64,000 nucleotides of DNA. Source: Escherichia phage vB_EcoM_G2540-3. The DNA is taken from sequence record MK327944.1. One strand, written 5' to 3'. The translations under genes were made by a program, and so were the position numbers. The notes below the pieces were generated by a model. That model ran no database searches. It saw only the letters and a program-made list of their open reading frames with translations, and was not told the origin of the DNA. Shown one piece after another: positions 26,442-52,956 of the stretch. Numbering within the stretch: the stretch's first letter is position 1; every line of letters begins with the position of its first letter.

Positions 26442-26475
26442 TTCATTCTCCAAATCCGCATCAGTTGATAGTTGT

Positions 26476-26505
26476 ATAGTACCATGGAAGAACAAGGATG
26501 TAAAC
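26476..26505 (-). promoter_or_regulatory. T4-type early promoter with conserved leader module
   Basis: Minus strand GTTTAC, 18 nt, TACTAT, followed by ACAACTATCAACTGATGCGGATTTGGAGAATGAA-ATG. Confidence 0.6.
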
Positions 26506-26585
26506 AGTTTTGTGAAAAAATTTTTAATGAATTCAAAGGATCCAGAATCATCTGTTTTTCATAAGTATAGATTTATATTACTTGT

Positions 26586-32484: not shown

Positions 32485-32673
32485 TTAGTCATAATAATCA
32501 GTAACAGTCCAAGCTTCATTTCTATTGGACATTATTTTCGTATATTCTGCTTTAAATGCATTTTTGAGCATAGATTCAGTAACTATATGCTCTTCATTAG
32601 AAAAATTATTTCTCAGAATATATCGTTTTATTTCAGGAATAGTTAATAGATGCTGTCCAGTTGAATATTCCAT
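32485..32673 (-). CDS. hypothetical protein, 62 aa (45.2 position)
   Basis: ORF only. Confidence 0.45.
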   Translation of the reverse strand: MEYSTGQHLLTIPEIKRYILRNNFSNEEHIVTESMLKNAFKAEYTKIMSNRNEAWTVTDYYD

Positions 32674-32728
32674 GTTTTTCCTCCATAGAGATTATACTCT
32701 AATAAATTAAAGCATAATCTCTTATAAA

Positions 32729-34411
32729 TTAAACCATTACAGTAAATCGACCAACTTTCTTCATTTGAAGATGCTGACCATATTCTTGTGGGTCATGGTC
32801 TTTATGCGAAATTATAAAAACATTAGTGTTTTTCATTGAATTTATAATATTAGCTACACCTTTAATACCTTCGGCATCAAATGACCCATCAAACACTTCA
32901 TCAAGAATTAATGTACTAATACTAACACCAGATACAATAGAAGCAATATCACGCCAAGTAAATAAAAGAGCAATATCGATTCGTGCCTTTTCGCCTTCAC
33001 TAAATGAAGCATAACTAAAATCTTCACGACCACGGGATTTAATTGTCTCATTAAATTCTTCATCTAATGTAAACACATAATCCGCTTCCATTATTTTAAG
33101 ATAATGGTTAATCTGCTTATTAAATAATGGAATGTACTTTTTAATAATAGCACCTTTAATACCAGAATCTTTGAGCATATCAGTCAAAATTCCTCTGTGG
33201 TATTTTTCCATTACTAAATTAGTTTTTGTCTTAACAATTTTATCAAGTTCTTCTTGAAGCAGTGCTATTTCATCAGCATGGTCAATAAACTCAGATGATG
33301 CTTTTTCTATAGCCGCTTTAACTTTTTTAGCTTTATCTACCGTCGTGATTAAGGATTGCTTTTTATTGCGAATATCATTTGCCAGCGTCTGCTGGGTTTT
33401 AATATTATCTCGGTATTCATCAACAAGAACTTTTAAATTATCACGATGTGTTGAAAGCTGTTCAAAAGAATGCGTGCATTCAGAAATTTTATCTTTAATT
33501 TTAGAAACAACTTTATCACCGGAACTTAATTGTGACAAACAGGTTGGACATAATCCACCTTCGTGATACATATTAATGACTTTATTATACGAGTCAATTT
33601 TTGATTTAATTAAAACTGCTTCTTGACCGATTTTATTAAATGCATCAGTTGGGTCTTCATCCAAAACAATATTAACTAATCTTTCGTTAGCTTCTTCTAT
33701 TTCCGATTTTAGCGTTCTAGCTTCTTTTGCCAAATCATCATACATATTTTGCAGACGAGTAAGGTTGTCACCCGTTAATTTTTTCTGGCGTTCAACGTTA
33801 TCATTATATATTTTAATTTGTTGGATAATACTATCTTTTTTAACATCAAGCACTTGGTTCTGCGAATTTAATTCGCGTATTAGTGCTTTATTAAGCTTAT
33901 CCATTTCAGCTAATGTTCCTACCTCAAGCAGGTCTTCCACAAGTTTTCTTCTTGCAGGAGTGGATAGGCCCATAAAAGGGGTATATCCAGCCGTGCCGAG
34001 TACGACGATCTGTTTGAAACTGGTGTATGACATTCCGATAAGCTGTTCAAATTCTGCTTGGAAATCTTTACTGCTGGCAGATTCATTAAGACGTGTACCG
34101 TTAACGGTGATTTCGAAAACATTTGGTTTTTGTCCTCTTTTGATATAGTACTTTTTCTCATCATATTCCATCCACAGTTCAACTAAAAGCTCTTTCTTAT
34201 TTGTGCTGTTTATTAATTGACCTTTCTTTACATCACGAAATGGCTTGCCAAAAAGCCCAAATGTGATGGCTTCTAACATAGTAGACTTACCACCGCCATT
34301 TCGTCCAGTAATAAGAGTTTTTTGAGCCTTATCTAGTTGAATGTCAACTCCATTTTGACCAACTGACATTATATTTTTATATTTTACTCTATTAAGTTTA
34401 AATGATTTCAT
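32729..34411 (-). CDS. 46: recombination endonuclease subunit gp46 (Rad50/SbcC-like ATPase), 560 aa
   Basis: Walker A GRNGGGKST, coiled-coil middle region with CPTC zinc hook, C-terminal Walker B ILDEVFD. Confidence 0.9.
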   Translation of the reverse strand: MKSFKLNRVKYKNIMSVGQNGVDIQLDKAQKTLITGRNGGGKSTMLEAITFGLFGKPFRDVKKGQLINSTNKKELLVELWMEYDEKKYYIKRGQKPNVFEITVNGTRLNESASSKDFQAEFEQLIGMSYTSFKQIVVLGTAGYTPFMGLSTPARRKLVEDLLEVGTLAEMDKLNKALIRELNSQNQVLDVKKDSIIQQIKIYNDNVERQKKLTGDNLTRLQNMYDDLAKEARTLKSEIEEANERLVNIVLDEDPTDAFNKIGQEAVLIKSKIDSYNKVINMYHEGGLCPTCLSQLSSGDKVVSKIKDKISECTHSFEQLSTHRDNLKVLVDEYRDNIKTQQTLANDIRNKKQSLITTVDKAKKVKAAIEKASSEFIDHADEIALLQEELDKIVKTKTNLVMEKYHRGILTDMLKDSGIKGAIIKKYIPLFNKQINHYLKIMEADYVFTLDEEFNETIKSRGREDFSYASFSEGEKARIDIALLFTWRDIASIVSGVSISTLILDEVFDGSFDAEGIKGVANIINSMKNTNVFIISHKDHDPQEYGQHLQMKKVGRFTVMV

Positions 34412-34426
34412 TTTGTATCCAATTGT

Positions 34427-35281
34427 TCACAATGAAGAAAATTCTTTAACTAAAGCCTGTAATGAAGCCTCTATTGGATATCCATTCTTAACTAACATTT
34501 TCCTAAACATTACATGTTTAGGACGATTATATGATATCCACAATTCATACAATTTATCTTTATTATCCCAATGATAGCCTTTTCGTCGAGATGCTATATG
34601 AGCTTTTCTAATCTCCGGATTTTTCCAACTAGCAGCTACTGAATTTGATATAGCTATTTTATATTCAGGTTTTGATAAAGCAGCACGAACAGCCTTTTGG
34701 TGTTTAATTTTATTTTCTTCGTTATTAAACCATTCCCTTGAAGCAATTGAAATTTTTTGTTTTGTTTTAAAATTATTTAATCTTTCTTTGTTATCTTTCC
34801 TATTTTTTGCTACTGAAAAATATTTTAATGCCCTTTCTCTAGCAGCATTTCTATTTTGCGGATTTGAATAATACTGTTGAAGCCTTTTTGATATTGTGTC
34901 ACTTACATCTTGTTTTATAAAACTATATTCAGCAGCTATTAAATCAACTTCGGCTAAAGATAAATTTTTATATGTTTTTCCTGACATCATTCTATTTAAA
35001 GCATTTAGCATTTTTCCATTTTTACCTTTTGCTAATAAGAAATGTGCTTTAAAATGATTAAAATGACTTAAATTAACTAAATTCCATGTAGATTTTAAAT
35101 ATTCAGGAAATATTGATTTAGGAAGCACGTGGTGTGCTTCCGTTTTACCTGGAGTTTTAACAGTTGAATTCATAGAAATAAAATTAATGTAAGACTTGGC
35201 GTCTTCTTCACTCAACGCTAATTTTTCAACTAATTCCTTTATTAAAAATTCATCATTAATGTCAAGTTTAAAATTCTTCAC
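34427..35281 (-). CDS. HNH (Mob-type) homing endonuclease, 284 aa, GTG start
   Basis: EAHHVLPKS...H motif; C-terminal LYELWISYNRPKHVMFRKMLVKNGYP module. Confidence 0.75.
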   Translation of the reverse strand: MKNFKLDINDEFLIKELVEKLALSEEDAKSYINFISMNSTVKTPGKTEAHHVLPKSIFPEYLKSTWNLVNLSHFNHFKAHFLLAKGKNGKMLNALNRMMSGKTYKNLSLAEVDLIAAEYSFIKQDVSDTISKRLQQYYSNPQNRNAARERALKYFSVAKNRKDNKERLNNFKTKQKISIASREWFNNEENKIKHQKAVRAALSKPEYKIAISNSVAASWKNPEIRKAHIASRRKGYHWDNKDKLYELWISYNRPKHVMFRKMLVKNGYPIEASLQALVKEFSSL

Positions 35282-35493
35282 AAAAGATTCCTTTTAATGT
35301 ATCTTTTAGACCATTCTATCATATCATCATAATCTAAAAAGTATTCGTCAAATTCAGCCATGCAAACAACGCCTTGTGCTGTTTTTGATGTAATGTAAAT
35401 TATTCCAACATATCTAGAATCTTCTTCGATATAATCAATATTTGCTATGAATTCATCATTAATGTCAAATGTCGAAAACTTCACAGTATGCAT
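35278..35493 (-). CDS. hypothetical small protein (46.1/46.2 position)
   Basis: ORF; an alternative GTG-AAG start at 35484 mirrors the start of the adjacent HNH gene. Confidence 0.45.
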   Translation of the reverse strand: MHTVKFSTFDINDEFIANIDYIEEDSRYVGIIYITSKTAQGVVCMAEFDEYFLDYDDMIEWSKRYIKRNLL

Positions 35494-35728
35494 CCTTAAT
35501 ACAAGATACAGCCATATCTCGTAATGATTTAGGTGTGTCATTATCTAAAATGTTGAAGTTAAAAGATACAGCCCAGTCAGTGCAGACTGTAACCTTTTTA
35601 ATACAATTATCTTCAACCTCTAACGGTTCAAACCAATATTCAATAATTTCTTTATGCCCAATATCATCTTTTACTTCGCATTCAAAATGCTGACTCATCA
35701 TAACATTTTTAAATTCATCAAAAGTCAT
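35465..35728 (-). CDS. hypothetical small protein, 87 aa
   Basis: ORF coupled to gene 47. Confidence 0.45.
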   Translation of the reverse strand: MTFDEFKNVMMSQHFECEVKDDIGHKEIIEYWFEPLEVEDNCIKKVTVCTDWAVSFNFNILDNDTPKSLRDMAVSCIKDAYCEVFDI

Positions 35729-36744
35729 TGTGTTGCCTCTACATATAACTGATTTGCATATTGAATAAGTGCTTCACGGTCAGAATCAGTGATGTCTGGA
35801 ATTGCATTAATGTATTCTTCCATCAACGTCTGAAGAGATTGAACTTCAACTTCTTCACTGTCATCTGACTCGACAGAGTTATCAATCTTTGACACAACTC
35901 GTAATGAATGCACAACTTTTTCTAGTTCAGATTCGAACTTCGTCAGATTTTTGTCTACTTCAGTTACTATAACACGTACTGATAGATTTGTAAAATCTTT
36001 ATAGTCAATTTTTCCTTTAAACGGATAATGAATTCTACGATGCCAGGTAGTATTGTTTGGAATAAATTCCATTCGTTCTGTTTCTGTATCAAACATCCAG
36101 AACCCGCGAGGGTCATTCTCGTCACCTGCAGTTAGTGTCCATGGTGTCCCAATATATCTGACGTTAGCAGCCTCAGAGATAGTATGGAAGTGACCAGACC
36201 ACACTTCTTTATAAGTCTTAAGGAAATCAGGTTCAAGACCGTGAGATTTCATTCCTTTATAAAAATAAAATCCATTCAGTTCCCAGTGACCAACACAAAA
36301 AGAAGCAGAAGAAGTTTTTATGTGCTCGAGAATTTCACCAGTATTTTCTTCACACATCCAAGGAATTAAATCAATTAAACATCCGTCAAAATCTACTGTA
36401 GTAGGCTTATCATACACTTTAACATTAGGATATTTAGCCAAAAGCTCAGTAGAAGCATTTGGATGCATTACATTTTTGTAGTGGAGATCGTGATTTCCTA
36501 CAATAGTATGTAATGTGATTCCAGCGTCATCAAGCATTTGAACTATTTCACGGGCAAACTCCATAGTTTTATGTGTAATTGCTTTTCGCACATCAAAAAT
36601 ATCACCATATTGAATCCATACAGTAATTCCATTTTTCTTAGAATATTCTATCGCTTGCTTAATTCCATCAATTTGAATACCGCGAATCCACTCATCATCA
36701 GCTTTAACGCCTAAATGCCAATCACCCAAGTTTAGTATTTTCAT
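35725..36744 (-). CDS. 47: recombination nuclease gp47 (Mre11/SbcD-like), 339 aa
   Basis: Phosphoesterase motifs MKILNLGDWHLG, GDIFD, GNHD; 339 aa. Confidence 0.9.
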   Translation of the reverse strand: MKILNLGDWHLGVKADDEWIRGIQIDGIKQAIEYSKKNGITVWIQYGDIFDVRKAITHKTMEFAREIVQMLDDAGITLHTIVGNHDLHYKNVMHPNASTELLAKYPNVKVYDKPTTVDFDGCLIDLIPWMCEENTGEILEHIKTSSASFCVGHWELNGFYFYKGMKSHGLEPDFLKTYKEVWSGHFHTISEAANVRYIGTPWTLTAGDENDPRGFWMFDTETERMEFIPNNTTWHRRIHYPFKGKIDYKDFTNLSVRVIVTEVDKNLTKFESELEKVVHSLRVVSKIDNSVESDDSEEVEVQSLQTLMEEYINAIPDITDSDREALIQYANQLYVEATQ

Positions 36745-37345
36745 GGTGTCTTTTCCATCCTAATTTAGCTGCTTTTGAAACCAGTTCTTTAATTTTTCCT
36801 TTTGTCCATTCAGGACCAGGAGGTTCATGACATAACATTTGCTTAACTCCGTTATTATACCATTTTTTACCTTTATTATGTGATGAAGCTTTAAATTTAT
36901 TTGACCTTCCTTTTACATAACCTTCTGGAATATAAGGCAAAAAGGCAGATTTTCCTGTTAATGGATCATGTGAATGTATATTTCCTTTACAATTATGAGA
37001 ACCATATAATGGATGATTTTGTCCTTTATTATCTCTTCCAAATGAACCTTTTGGAGCAGCATATGACATATTAAAGAATAATGGATTTTTAACTGCATCA
37101 TGCAATCGTTGATAATATAACTCGCATTTAATAGCTTCTTCACGCGTATCAAATTCAGCTAAAATGCATGAATCAAATAAGTGAGGATTATCTGAAAGCT
37201 CTTTATTATAAATTTTCTTATACTTTTTAGATAAAACTGAACCATGATATCCAGCTAAATGCCTATCTAAAGACGTAGATCCAATATAAAAAGGAGGAAG
37301 TTTATCTCCGCTATATATTGTTAAATAAGTTATATATTTTTTCAT
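36722..37345 (-). CDS. GIY-YIG homing endonuclease (Seg-like), 207 aa
   Basis: N-terminal YITYLTIYSGDKLPPFYIGST... GIY-YIG-like motif. Confidence 0.65.
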   Translation of the reverse strand: MKKYITYLTIYSGDKLPPFYIGSTSLDRHLAGYHGSVLSKKYKKIYNKELSDNPHLFDSCILAEFDTREEAIKCELYYQRLHDAVKNPLFFNMSYAAPKGSFGRDNKGQNHPLYGSHNCKGNIHSHDPLTGKSAFLPYIPEGYVKGRSNKFKASSHNKGKKWYNNGVKQMLCHEPPGPEWTKGKIKELVSKAAKLGWKRHHENTKLG

Positions 37346-37482
37346 ATATCAAGAACCGTCATTGAAATGCAAAATAAAATTATTGAAATAAACCCATCTG
37401 GTGTGCTAAAGAACCCAATCCAACATGCTCTAGTGAATAGATAAAATGCAAGAAAAAGTATCACATATCCAAGAAATATCAT
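37342..37482 (-). CDS. small hydrophobic peptide, 46 aa (below ORF-track cutoff)
   Basis: MIFLGYVILFLAFYLF...; RBS GGAG; stop overlaps the start of the GIY-YIG gene. Confidence 0.35.
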   Translation of the reverse strand: MIFLGYVILFLAFYLFTRACWIGFFSTPDGFISIILFCISMTVLDI

Positions 37483-37505
37483 TATATCAAACTCCGTATA
37501 AAGCT

Positions 37506-37523
37506 AAAGGGCCGAAGCCCTTT
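37506..37523 (-). other. UUCG hairpin after alpha-gt
   Basis: Minus RNA AAAGGGC-UUCG-GCCCUUU overlapping the alpha-gt stop. Confidence 0.55.
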
Positions 37524-38724
37524 ATTTTGTAATAATGTCAAACTGTTCTTTAAAGCAGAAGCTTGAATCTTGATGCTGATACAAAAATTCATAAGCTTTT
37601 TCGCGTTCGCGGTCATAAAGAGTTCGGTCAGATGACAGTTCTTTAATACGTTCAAATGTTGATTCCATGTCATTTTCATCAAACCAAATGATACCGCTAT
37701 CATGCGAGGTCAAAGGAGTATTATCAACACGGAATTTTAAATTTTCGCCAGTAGATTTCCAAAATACCGGAATTGTTCCACATGCACCAAGCTCGAGATG
37801 AGTATATTCTAAAGAGCGCTGTAGATATTTTTTATCCAACTTACTCAACTGATAACCAAAACCGGATTTACTCATACGTTCAAGCATTTCGCTATTTACA
37901 TAACGGTCAAGAATTTGCGTTGGCAAATTAGGAGCAATTTTAATTTGGTCTACTTGATGAAGACGATAATACTCGTATGGAATTCCTTTTTCTTTAATAG
38001 GAATGAACGCTGGAGAACGTTCCAGACCTTCCATAATAGTACTTAGTCCTGCAGGTTTAAGATGTTTTTCATGAAAATCAAACATCTGATAAAAACCTTT
38101 CCATGTAGTCGTACGACCAATCCAACGGTTGATATTCATGTTAATTTCAGAAACATCTTTCCAGTAGGTTGATCGAACCTTCGCAATATCCATAGGAGGC
38201 TGAAAGTTATATACTGTCGGCGCTTCTTCAATATCATCAAACAGAGAAACTGTTTCCGGATACCATTCTTTCATCAGAACTTTATTAAAATCGCCATTAT
38301 CAGAATGGCTAAAAATAACATCAGCTCGACGAACAGTTTCTTCTAATCCCAAATTTCGACGCAAAGAAAGAGAAGAATGGTCATGCTGATAAACTACAAC
38401 ACGAACAGAAGGTTTAATGTTATCAATAATTTTTTTATAGTTATTAATAGTGTCTTCTTCAACCCAAGTAGCAGGAACTGAATTGATAATTAGAATATCA
38501 CAATCATTTACCAGCTTAAGTGTTTTATCGTATTCTTTTGCCAATAAAACCGGAATTGAAAATGATTTATAATCATGCGCGCAATTACGAGTAAATGATT
38601 TATCTTTAGCATAAACCAAAGTCACTTCATGACCATTTTTAATAAACCAATCACGTTGCTCGAGTGAGAATTTAGTTACACCACAACCTTCAAGACCTCG
38701 AGCCATAAAAATACATACTTTCAT
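37522..38724 (-). CDS. a-gt: DNA alpha-glucosyltransferase, 400 aa
   Basis: 400 aa; N-terminus MKVCIFMARGLEGCGVTKFSLEQRDWFIKNGHEV is alpha-gt-like. Confidence 0.85.
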   Translation of the reverse strand: MKVCIFMARGLEGCGVTKFSLEQRDWFIKNGHEVTLVYAKDKSFTRNCAHDYKSFSIPVLLAKEYDKTLKLVNDCDILIINSVPATWVEEDTINNYKKIIDNIKPSVRVVVYQHDHSSLSLRRNLGLEETVRRADVIFSHSDNGDFNKVLMKEWYPETVSLFDDIEEAPTVYNFQPPMDIAKVRSTYWKDVSEINMNINRWIGRTTTWKGFYQMFDFHEKHLKPAGLSTIMEGLERSPAFIPIKEKGIPYEYYRLHQVDQIKIAPNLPTQILDRYVNSEMLERMSKSGFGYQLSKLDKKYLQRSLEYTHLELGACGTIPVFWKSTGENLKFRVDNTPLTSHDSGIIWFDENDMESTFERIKELSSDRTLYDREREKAYEFLYQHQDSSFCFKEQFDIITK

Positions 38725-51437: not shown

Positions 51438-51464
51438 TTGTGTTCCTCCGTAGTTGATAGTTGT

Positions 51465-51494
51465 ATAGTACCACAGAGGAACAGTCTTGTAAAC
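51465..51494 (-). promoter_or_regulatory. T4-type early promoter
   Basis: Minus strand GTTTAC, 18 nt, TACTAT, followed by ACAACTATCAACT. Confidence 0.6.
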
Positions 51495-51900: not shown

Positions 51901-52869
51901 TTATTTCAGAAGAGTAACCTCAGCAATTTCTTCCCAACCGTTTTTGTCGGTCATAATAAAGTCAGCAAGATAAAGAGCAGTACGCAGTGAAACATTGCGT
52001 AAACGATTAACATTAACTTTCATCCATGATAATGCTTTATAAGTTTCTTCATCAGAAAGACCGCGCTTTTGCATCATGTCAGTTGAAAGAATAACATCTT
52101 CAACCCTGACCATAATTTCTTCATTAGTGTGAACACCCAAATCCAAATAAACCGAGCGGGACACTAATGCTTGTAAATGTGGAGCAAGTTTAGTACCACG
52201 GTCTAATTCGCGGTCAATGTCAACGTTTGTGATAAAAACAATCGTTCCTTTAAATTCAAACTCACGCTCAATGCCTTTTTCTTCTAAGTAAGAAGACGCA
52301 GTGCTCCAGCAGACTTTACGGGTCTCTCCGGTGTCCAGAGCAGCTTTCAGAAGATTAAGAATGTCCATATCAGAGAAAACATCCACATCATCAATCAAAA
52401 GGACAGAATTCTCTTCACGATTATTCCAAAGCTGTTCATAAAGACCAATACCAGAGATTTTACCATTAATGCTTTTATATTCAATGTATCCAATATCATT
52501 TGCTTTATTTAAAGCTTTATCTAAAGAATACGTTTTACCAATGCCTGCCGCACCAGAGATAATTAATGAACGAATGTTTCCGTTAATAATACCATTCGTC
52601 ATCATTCCCATAACATTAAATCTTTTATTAATGCGGGTTTTCATATCTTCATACGATTCTTTAACTTCTTCAACTTTTACACCATCATATGAAATGTCTG
52701 ATTTGTAAACCCAAACACCGCGACGTTTACCGTCAATTTCAACAAAAACTTTACCATCTCCTTGTGCATCTACTGGAGCATTATCTGGGAACCATTCGCC
52801 TAAGAGCTCAAAAGTTCCAGAGATTTCTTTACCGAAGTAGATACCCTTATTGATAGTTACAGTTTTCAT
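51901..52869 (-). CDS. P-loop (AAA-like) ATPase, 322 aa
   Basis: Walker A GAAGIGKT and Walker B LLIDDVD; start trimmed to ATG 52869 after RBS GGAG. Confidence 0.6.
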   Translation of the reverse strand: MKTVTINKGIYFGKEISGTFELLGEWFPDNAPVDAQGDGKVFVEIDGKRRGVWVYKSDISYDGVKVEEVKESYEDMKTRINKRFNVMGMMTNGIINGNIRSLIISGAAGIGKTYSLDKALNKANDIGYIEYKSINGKISGIGLYEQLWNNREENSVLLIDDVDVFSDMDILNLLKAALDTGETRKVCWSTASSYLEEKGIEREFEFKGTIVFITNVDIDRELDRGTKLAPHLQALVSRSVYLDLGVHTNEEIMVRVEDVILSTDMMQKRGLSDEETYKALSWMKVNVNRLRNVSLRTALYLADFIMTDKNGWEEIAEVTLLK

Positions 52870-52903
52870 TTTATTCTCCAAATCCGTATCAGTTGATAGT
52901 TGT

Positions 52904-52933
52904 ATAGTACCATAAAGCTTTATGCTTGTAAAC
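52904..52933 (-). promoter_or_regulatory. T4-type early promoter with conserved leader module
   Basis: Minus strand GTTTAC, 18 nt, TACTAT, followed by ACAACTATCAACTGATACGGATTTGGAGAATAAA-ATG. Confidence 0.6.
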
Positions 52934-52956
52934 AATTTTGTGAAAAAATTTTTGAA

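Follow-up and report, generated by a model that had tools for sequence, protein, structure and literature searches.

A homing endonuclease gene at the start of gene 46 in a T4-like phage, with a predicted captured start and a leader drawn from two host genes

The endonuclease gene and its distribution

The window analysed here (the whole 64-kb stretch of DNA, 64,000 nucleotides, nt, of record MK327944.1 from Escherichia phage vB_EcoM_G2540-3) belongs to a Tequatrovirus (T4-like) genome, and our subject is an open reading frame (ORF) for an HNH protein that stands in it between gene 46.1 and gene 46, in a locus where all genes lie on the minus strand. The original prediction had the ORFs right, namely an HNH ORF at 34427-35281 with a GTG start and a small gene ending at 35278; it read a 19-nt block shared by the two as a sign that the HNH gene duplicates the 5′ end of its upstream neighbor, by a local duplication of a translation-initiation region at the insertion site. 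The best overall explanation, which we hold to be reasonably probable, would be that a homing endonuclease gene (HEG) sits in frame within the first codons of gene 46, that its first 12 codons are borrowed, some of them as a relic of an earlier location, that it came to its present place by an ectopic move, and that it is accompanied by a stretch of gene 46 that is immune to it.

To judge from its sequence, the ORF is a free-standing HEG of the Mob type with an HNH nuclease. The protein matches PHROG 655 (“homing endonuclease”, E=4.8e-45) and PHROG 12434 (“HNH endonuclease”, E=2.5e-15) and is ~30% identical to T4 mobD by tblastn (E=3e-11), and public records for G28, RB68 and others already label the gene “homing endonuclease”. 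An HNH motif can be read in the protein, EAHHVLPKS...NLVNLSHFNHFKAH (E-A-H-H-V-L-P-K-S...N-L-V-N-L-S-H-F-N-H-F-K-A-H), in which H50, H51, N67, H73, N75, H76 and H80 are invariant across the variants from three genera (H-H...N...H-x-x-x-H). A sequence search of the PDB found no relative, and a search for homologous proteins returned only 5, three of them at 31-35% identity and the other two being the same cluster and the truncated form of RB68. The endonuclease is not inside a self-splicing intron or an intein, in that a separate stop ends the ORF and a separate start begins gene 46, and no group I or group II intron or other Rfam family was matched at 33500-37500. One further feature of the coding sequence is an 8-bp G+C-rich hairpin (GGAAGCAC-ACCAC-GTGCTTCC) at 35121-35141, exactly over the E-A-H-H-V-L-P codons; it was flagged by a terminator scan on the antisense strand, and the homologues from Mosigvirus and Gelderlandvirus do not have it.

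The presence of the gene is sporadic at one fixed site, with 71 of ~568 Tequatrovirus records carrying it and ~497 lacking it, and with flanks 96-99% identical. Over the 2 kb surrounding the HNH ORF, the window is 99.7% identical to Escherichia phage vB_EcoM-G28 and ~98% identical to RB51, T6, T2 and many others. The endonuclease is intact in T6, G28, SYGD1 and the window. It is frameshifted in T2, where 2 A were lost from an AAAA run (L028, nt 609-610), and independently in RB51/RB68, where 1 A was lost from an AAAAAA run (L029, nt 524), the RB68 form being truncated; these frameshifts are the usual decay phase of homing endonucleases. Both amount to homopolymer slippage, and reversibility at such phage “contingency loci” has been suggested in a 2025 preprint.

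The small upstream gene is T4 46.1. It matches Pfam DUF5487 (E=4.9e-48) over profile positions 1-66 of 66, with the match running from the GTG codon, and also PHROG 2327 (E=8.5e-39). Two starts can be chosen for it, the GTG at 35484 of the T4 annotation or the ATG at 35493, which is the coordinate used in the original prediction and also in RB18. All 71 records that carry the HNH gene carry 46.1 as well.

A gene 46 initiation region at the head of the endonuclease

The origin of the endonuclease start is seen by comparison with genomes that lack the gene. In T4 nothing lies between 46.1 and 46, and the 46.1 stop overlaps the gene 46 GTG (...AAAAGGAATCTTTTGTGAAGAATTTTAAACTTAATAGAG..., MKNFKLNRVKY); an old T4 entry, GenBank M10160, annotates gene 46 with a “gtg start codon”. 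The HEG-less junction between the 46.1 stop and the 46 start reads ...CTTTTGTGAAGAATTTTAAACT(T/A)AA... in T4 plus 429 records with the gene 46 allele that we call naive below, and at this junction T4 and five other HEG-less Tequatroviruses read ...AAAAGGAATCTTTTGTGAAGAATTTTAAACT(T/A)AA..., up to which point the window matches. The window is identical to T4 through GTGAAGAATTTTAAACTT, then continues as GACATTAATGATGAATTTTTAATAAAG... into the endonuclease, and the T4 sequence returns after 870 nt (290 codons, in frame) at AATAGAGTAAAATAT. Since the match to HEG-less genomes runs through GTGAAGAATTTTAAACTT, the GTG-AAG of the HNH gene appears to be the native initiation region of gene 46. The original prediction had pointed to a GTG-AAG pair at both starts, and the pair is present in both, but the one in the HNH gene is the native gene 46 start and not a copy of that of 46.1.

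The captured region has three parts: a Shine-Dalgarno sequence, AAGGA, at 35289-35293; the GTG that overlaps the 46.1 stop as GTGA; and gene 46 codons 1-6 (GTGAAGAATTTTAAACTT, 35264-35281), which are now the first six codons of the endonuclease. The same 17 nt of the captured start are present in the 429 naive HEG-less records. No start codon comes between an in-frame stop and the GTG at 35281, and the HEG has no other canonical in-frame start, so the endonuclease would depend on the captured start.

Gene 46 has a spare start at the other end of the insert. It consists of ACAATTGGATACAAA, a spacer of 15 nt (34412-34426) that includes GGA as a Shine-Dalgarno-like element, and of ATGAAATCATTTAAACTT (34394-34411), with an ATG and recoded codons 2-3, so that the insert ends in GGATACAAAATGAAATCATTTAAACTT, and beyond it gene 46 is identical to that of T4 for >40 nt. 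The N-terminus of gp46 is accordingly MKSFKL... in the window versus MKNFKL... in T4, a single substitution (N3S) in one polypeptide. This makes for a second duplication, missed by the original prediction: 18 nt at the head of the HNH ORF (35264-35281) recur at the head of gene 46 (34394-34411), with 14/18 positions identical and an exact 9-nt TTTAAACTT among them. An initiation region is thus duplicated at the insertion site, as had been proposed, but the actual partner of the first 18 nt of the HNH gene is the new gene 46 start, ATGAAATCATTTAAACTT. The insert junctions are identical in all six HEG-carrying genomes that were compared (the window, G28, T6, T2, RB51 and SYGD1). It is very probable, on these comparisons, that HEG codons 1-6, the AAGGA and the GTGA overlap are the ancestral gene 46 initiation region and that the end of the insert is a spare start.

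Two other kinds of insertion were considered and rejected. For a transposon or insertion sequence with target-site duplication, the 9-nt TTTAAACTT is part of the imperfect 18-nt duplication of the gene 46 start, which comes from the homologous flank; no terminal inverted repeats were found, and the only ORF is the HNH nuclease. For an insertion of the “genes-in-pieces” kind, only gene 46 codons 1-6 lie upstream, fused to the HEG, and a complete gene 46 of 560 amino acids follows.

A third, degenerate copy of the junction between 46.1 and 46 may lie at the 3′ end of the endonuclease; it gives a local alignment score of 20 and a shuffle p of ~0.02, which is uncorrected for multiple tests and weak. 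By eye the C-termini resemble each other (EFMRKNL versus RYIKRNLL), and a 46.1 3′ remnant was therefore sought there, but DNA local alignments against the 46.1 3′ ends of four genera were no better than shuffles (p=0.3-1.0). The coordinates of these features and of the neighboring genes are collected in Table 1.

Table 1. Features of the endonuclease locus, in window coordinates
Feature	Position	Strand	Remarks
HNH ORF	34427-35281	minus	284 amino acids, GTG start
Captured gene 46 initiation region (predicted)	35264-35293	minus	identical to T4 46.1/46 junction
17-nt block GACATTAATGATGAATT (DINDEF, endonuclease codons 7-12)	35247-35263	minus	identical to 46.1 codons 7-12
Original 19-mer copy inside 46.1 (codons 6-12)	35450-35468	minus	includes TGA stop of 46.2
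870-bp insert versus T4 empty site	34394-35263	minus	46.1-derived block, endonuclease, spacer, spare gene 46 start
Spare gene 46 initiation region (predicted)	34394-34426	minus	spacer + ATGAAATCATTTAAACTT
Gene 46 stretch nt 1-63 linked to endonuclease	34349-34411	minus	recoded start + K12, Q19, G21, V22 codons
Possible degenerate third copy of 46.1-stop/46-start junction (TCTTCATTGTGAACAATT vs T4 TCTT--TTGTGAAGAATT)	34421-34438	minus	supplies endonuclease TGA stop
Gene 46 (Rad50/SbcC-like recombination nuclease subunit)	32729-34411	minus	intact, 560 amino acids
Gene 46.1 (DUF5487)	35278-35484	minus	stop overlaps endonuclease GTG; alternative ATG start at 35493
Gene 46.2 (T4_Y03C family)	35465-35728	minus	3′ end overlaps 46.1 start by 20 nt
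Gene 47	35725-36744	minus	
GIY-YIG-like endonuclease gene	36722-37345	minus	
47.1	37342-37482	minus	
alpha-gt	37522-38724	minus	

The repeat shared with gene 46.1 and the relatives in other genera

The 19-mer that drew attention to this locus, TTGACATTAATGATGAATT, is present in exactly 2 copies in the window, at 35247-35265 and 35450-35468 and both on the minus strand, so the shared block holds up, and it is not a widespread sequence: no further copies with ≤3 mismatches exist in the window (0.18 expected). It is one of ~9 exact direct repeats of at least 17 nt there, and with a spacing of 203 nt it extends to 45 nt at 78% identity. The repeat is real and not a matter of chance. That it should be a fortuitous resemblance between two A/T-rich N-terminal coding regions draws on the A/T-richness of the region and on a composition shared by T4 start regions, but ~1.6e-5 exact 19-mers are expected per window by a first-order Markov estimate, and near copies are missing, so that we give chance practically no credence.

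Both copies begin 16 nt after a GTG-AAG and therefore lie in one codon register, GTG AAG TTT TCG ACA TTT GAC ATT AAT GAT GAA TTC in 46.1 versus GTG AAG AAT TTT AAA CTT GAC ATT AAT GAT GAA TTT in the endonuclease gene. The leading TT of the 19-mer is part of the preceding codon in both genes, which leaves 17 nt, GACATTAATGATGAATT, as the identity specific to 46.1. Thus the proposal that the HNH gene duplicates the 5′ end of 46.1 was right about a real homology, but only codons 7-12, DINDEF, are derived from 46.1.

Equal distance from a GTG-AAG start is also what one would look for if the repeat were a functional cis element, such as a translational-regulator site or an RNA structure, kept by selection at both starts. 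T4 uses translational repressors that bind near start codons. However, RNA folds around the two starts are no better than shuffled (z = -0.09 and -0.88), and there is no Rfam match; a regulatory role is further disfavored by the promoter scan, with no T4 late-promoter TATAAATA nearby and sigma-70-like sites at background level. The endonuclease-side 17-mer has drifted by 1-2 substitutions in T2 (GATATT...) and in SYGD1 (GATATTAATAATG...), and so has not been kept identical to the 46.1 copy, which has not drifted. HEG-less genomes have one copy only, the HEG relatives in other genera have none, and the 17-mer is absent elsewhere in the window. We regard a selected element as highly improbable.

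The relatives show to which gene the block belongs. Among 46.1 homologues the (H/D)(E/D)F core is kept, as HEF in Mosigvirus, HDF in Karamvirus and HEF in Gelderlandvirus, and the endonuclease homologues do not have DINDEF, their N-termini being 4-6 residues shorter; the block should therefore be native to 46.1, and the predicted enzyme proper begins at about codon 12/13. Those homologues were found by tblastn, at 43-45% identity over nearly full length, in the same interval from 47 to 46 of Mosigvirus (SQ17) and Gelderlandvirus (SEA1, Melville). HEG-less Mosigviruses (PhAPEC2, RB69 and ~150 others) have the order 46.2, 46.1, 46, and the HEG-carrying ones (10/162 records) have the order 46.2, HEG, 46, with 46.1 absent. 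The SQ17 HEG matches PhAPEC2 46.1 exactly as far as the end of ATGACGAAGACTGATTATGAAA (MTKTDYE) and departs from it right there, so the Mosigvirus HEG is seen from its sequence to occupy the 46.1 slot and to keep the first seven codons of that genus's 46.1. In Gelderlandvirus SEA1 the HEG begins at the position of the 47 stop and the 46.1 start, with a Karamvirus-like junction CAGAATCAATGAT, and only the 46.1 start position is kept. The 3′ ends of the HEGs of both genera overlap the gene 46 start by 14 nt. As a side observation, the Gelderlandvirus endonuclease starts MI-DAET... (SEA1, L004 2489-2510) and that of Mosigvirus MTKT-DYET... (SQ17, L005 2444-2470), where DYE is a 46.1 sequence of Mosigvirus; D-x-E-T, though short with its three residues in common, may represent another leader relic that passed from genus to genus.

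When the proteins are aligned without gaps, with the conserved Y-x-(N/E)-F-I motif as anchor, leader gives way to HEG at codon 12 in the window and at codon 8 in SQ17, which is the equivalent residue. Because of this equivalence, and because the relatives sit in the 46.1 slot, we take the DINDEF block to be a relic, left from nesting of the HEG inside a T4-type 46.1 at an earlier stage, a reading that we find somewhat better than even. The evidence thus favors such a relic over the fresh local duplication of the original prediction. The precursor so predicted would have 46.2, then a HEG with the protein start MKFSTFDINDEFLIKELVEK (MKFSTFDINDEF-LIKELVEK..., start MKFSTFDINDEFLIKE...), then 46, and no 46.1.

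A local copy deserves to be weighed against it, that is, a one-step insertion scar in which the 46.1 block was made by local copying during insertion of the HEG where it now stands; a broken gene 46 end might, for instance, have been extended for a few bases on the 46.1 start of a sister genome before synthesis switched to the HEG donor. In its favor, one genome has both copies in one register at a distance of only 203 nt, the joints of the block have short A/T-rich microhomologies on either side (TT at the left one, AATT/TTT at the right one), and no nested T4-type precursor is found in the collections searched. But two template switches would be needed instead of one, and local copying leaves unexplained why relatives in two genera start at the 46.1 start, the Mosigvirus HEG with a leader from the 46.1 of its own genus, and why the boundary between leader and HEG is at the equivalent residue in Mosigvirus and in the window. 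We consider a local copy unlikely.

Linked gene 46 alleles, a proposed history and known systems

When the six HEG-carrying genomes were compared with HEG-less ones, no single-nucleotide polymorphisms (SNPs) linked to the HEG were found in the 980 nt to the left of the insert, and the right flank has HEG-linked differences at gene 46 nt 1-9 and 62-63. With linked SNPs only on the right, the left joint is abrupt and the right joint homologous. The naive allele of HEG-less Tequatroviruses reads CTA AAC CGA GTT AGG TAT CAA ... GGT GGA AAT CCT (YQNIMSVGGNP) and agrees with the consensus of HEG-less Mosigvirus, Karamvirus and Gelderlandvirus genomes. The T4-type allele reads CTT AAT AGA GTA AAA TAT AAA ... 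GGT CAA AAT GGG (YKNIMSVGQNG), and the same allele flanks the HEG. A census of the phage collection gave 429 naive records, ~68 that are T4-type and HEG-less (many of them T4 itself) and 71 that carry the HEG. In HEG-carrying Mosigvirus and Gelderlandvirus, but not in HEG-less members of these genera, gene 46 has T4-like states (codon 12 for K or S, codon 19 for Q), and nt 9-57 of gene 46 in SEA1 are nearly identical to those of T4. The foreign stretch of gene 46 ends at about nt 63 in all three genera, Tequatrovirus, Mosigvirus and Gelderlandvirus, and T4 carries the recoded stretch of nt 1-63 without the gene.

As read from these alignments, the linked stretch is the classic signature of co-conversion, running from the insertion site to a predicted offset cleavage site. 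Inheritance of a flank along with the gene fits a cut made at some distance from the point of insertion (PMC2988022). The probable target for cutting or nicking is gene 46 nt ~30-65 of the naive allele, and the recoded 63-nt stretch would be an uncuttable, immune allele. T4 would then have gained the linked stretch in one of two ways, through a deletion across the TTTAAACTT repeat that removed the HEG or through conversion in which the HEG was not transferred.

The alleles bear as well on the possibility that the direction is reversed, with DINDEF native to the endonuclease, or with a GTGAAGAAT start native to the HEG and inherited by T4 gene 46. The T4-type HEG-less genomes do carry the HEG-linked stretch, and may descend from HEG-carrying ones by deletion across TTTAAACTT. 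But the 429 naive records, which have no HEG-linked stretch, have GTGAAGAATTTTAAACTA as the gene 46 start, in coupling with the stop of 46.1; Karamvirus has a similar ATGAAGATTTTCAAA in the same ATGA-coupled arrangement; and the (H/D)(E/D)F core is conserved in the 46.1 of genera whose HEG relatives lack the motif. A reversal of direction thus strikes us as very improbable.

The history that we propose for the borrowed leader is as follows. The HEG would first have been nested in a T4-type 46.1 and have used the 46.1 start, as its relatives in Mosigvirus and Gelderlandvirus do today, and would then have moved 203 bp downstream. In such a move a broken 5′ end of gene 46 (...GTGAAGAATTTTAAACT) may have paired ectopically with the similar start of the 46.1/HEG fusion (...GTGAAGTTTTCGACATTT, just before GAC...); the pairing would have primed copying through the HEG, and the other end would have been captured in gene 46, which would give a left joint that is abrupt and a right one that is homologous. 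Between the two start regions, TGTGAAG and T-rich codons, there is indeed similarity, with 12/18 positions identical. Moreover, in STML-198, a Salmonella phage of the Gelderlandvirus genus (L009 780-800 versus S16 L008 785-1000), there is no gene between 47 and 46, and the gene 46 GTG overlaps the gene 47 stop (ctcGTGAAAACATTTAAG). This is consistent with the loss of a 46.1-like gene by deletion across the TGAAA common to the 46.1 and 46 starts, and such a deletion would mean that recombination between start regions occurs in this locus.

Taken further, the 12-codon leader may be the fossil trail of a HEG hopping between translationally coupled junctions, from the 46.1 start to the gene 46 start, by way of RTGAAR similarity and with a spare start carried along; we put this forward tentatively, as somewhat less than an even bet. 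If it is so, the broken end may have lain where the abrupt left joint is now, and K12, Q19 and G21 of T4 gp46 would be an immunity imposed by the endonuclease, with the Q12, G19 and P21 of the naive allele (429 records and other genera) ancestral and cuttable.

Several points weigh against this history. The ectopic invasion is a reconstruction and not an observation. Since naive codon 6 is CTA, the left joint falls at nt 17/18, with only 1-2 nt of microhomology. The donor is ambiguous, in that ATGAAATCATTTAAA of the spare start is identical to the native gene 46 start of the HEG-less Mosigvirus PhAPEC2, so that the spare start is Mosigvirus-like but the adjacent stretch T4-like. A retained 46.1 3′ end draws on the single comparison with p ~0.02, the rest being not significant. 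A Pfam search with the endonuclease gave no match to an HNH model. Finally, the nested precursor is absent from the 71 isolates, from IMG/VR and from the JGI metagenomes: exact-pattern scans of IMG/VR for ACATTTGACATTAATGATGAATTTTTAAT and GACATTAATGATGAATTTTTAATAAAGG and of the JGI metagenomes for GACATTAATGATGAATTTTTAATAAAGG gave no match, a search of IMG/VR for related loci with the endonuclease protein gave no relatives, and a search of metagenomes with the three-genus alignment gave 17 distant HNH loci that are uninformative for this one.

As to expression, the T4 late promoter TATAAATA does not occur within several kb, and sigma-70-like sites near the HEG are at background level, which leaves it without a promoter of its own. 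Given these results, and no RNA structure at the starts, the HEG is most likely expressed from read-through transcripts, with its translation coupled to that of 46.1 by termination and reinitiation at the GTGA overlap. Translational coupling of T4 HEGs (mobE and others) to overlapping upstream ORFs has already been proposed (PMC2988022).

Among known systems, MobE and MobD of T4 are the closest in kind. Like them, this is an HNH nuclease with a long C-terminal region, ~30% identical to MobD, free-standing between genes of DNA metabolism and sporadic. At the nrdA/mobE UAAUGA junction the mobE start overlaps the upstream stop (PMC2988022), and the overlap of start and upstream stop here likewise points to translational coupling. 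MobE, however, has its own AUG in an intergenic slot, whereas here the predicted start, the Shine-Dalgarno sequence and six codons are those of the downstream essential gene, the upstream gene has contributed six further codons, and the displaced gene receives a substitute start. The HEGs of Mosigvirus and Gelderlandvirus (that of Melville is called “MobD-like”) occupy the same interval directly upstream of gene 46 and are linked to a recoded stretch of gene 46; the window HEG differs in lying downstream of an intact 46.1, in starting with gene 46 codons and in stopping 15 nt before the new gene 46 ATG. T4 mobA with gene 60/39 and the mobE that splits nrdA in Aeromonas phage Aeh1 reportedly place a HEG inside an essential coding sequence, in a cassette that keeps the host gene working. 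There the host protein is split in two, whereas here six codons are displaced and supplied anew. The co-conversion of SegF and SegG, with marker exclusion in T2 × T4 crosses, likewise has a flanking host stretch inherited with the endonuclease gene, but the offset here would be ~30-65 bp and not hundreds of bp, and comes from comparative sequence and not from crosses.

Translational coupling of HEGs, co-conversion and compensating sequence are thus themes already known, and the gene is a tidy variant of ordinary homing-endonuclease biology. In the literature we found no description of the gene, of its junction architecture, of the cross-genus co-converted stretch or of the HEG-less stretch in T4, in a coverage that is incomplete, so that a prior description is possible. 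If read correctly, the locus exhibits a selfish nuclease gene inside the first codons of an essential gene without harm to it, having taken the host ribosome-binding site and start for its own, probably low-level, coupled translation and brought a replacement for the host. A mosaic leader of this kind would preserve steps in the history of an element that are normally invisible. The 63-nt linked stretch amounts to a concrete prediction of the enzyme's target, and implies that part of the T4 gene 46 sequence was shaped by an endonuclease that T4 no longer carries. For annotation, the proposed capture explains why the gene 46 starts of T-even phages differ (GTG AAG AAT versus ATG AAA TCA), and residues 1-12 of the protein labeled “homing endonuclease” should be treated as lying outside the enzyme family.

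A similar layout recurs nearby, at the junction of 47.1 and 47, with a GIY-YIG-like gene (36715-37345, minus strand, 207 amino acids). It matches Pfam GIY-YIG at E=3e-4, which is below the cutoff, and PHROG 10820/314. The gene starts at the ATGA overlap where T4 gene 47 starts, ATGAAAA being common to both, and a new start of gene 47, ATGAAAATACTAAACTTGGGT, follows 600 nt downstream and differs from T4 ATGAAAATTTTAAATTTAGGT by four synonymous changes; the 3′ end of the GIY-YIG-like gene overlaps the new gene 47 start by 23 nt. Start capture may be a general route for such genes into operons with overlapping stop and start codons.

Two minor observations concern the wider genome. Other exact repeats of 17-22 nt (AGTTGATAGTTGTATAGTACCA, TTTTGTGAAAAAATTTTT) recur in the window at no fewer than 4 places tens of kb apart (26460-26525, 51452-51476, 52867-52953 and 56341), and look like regulatory or promoter-type elements. 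And G28, the closest relative, has an extra 717-nt homing endonuclease gene on the opposite strand between gene 46 and 45.2 (L002 6271-6987), which the window does not have (compare 32673-32729); the endonuclease content of the two thus differs despite 99.7% identity nearby.

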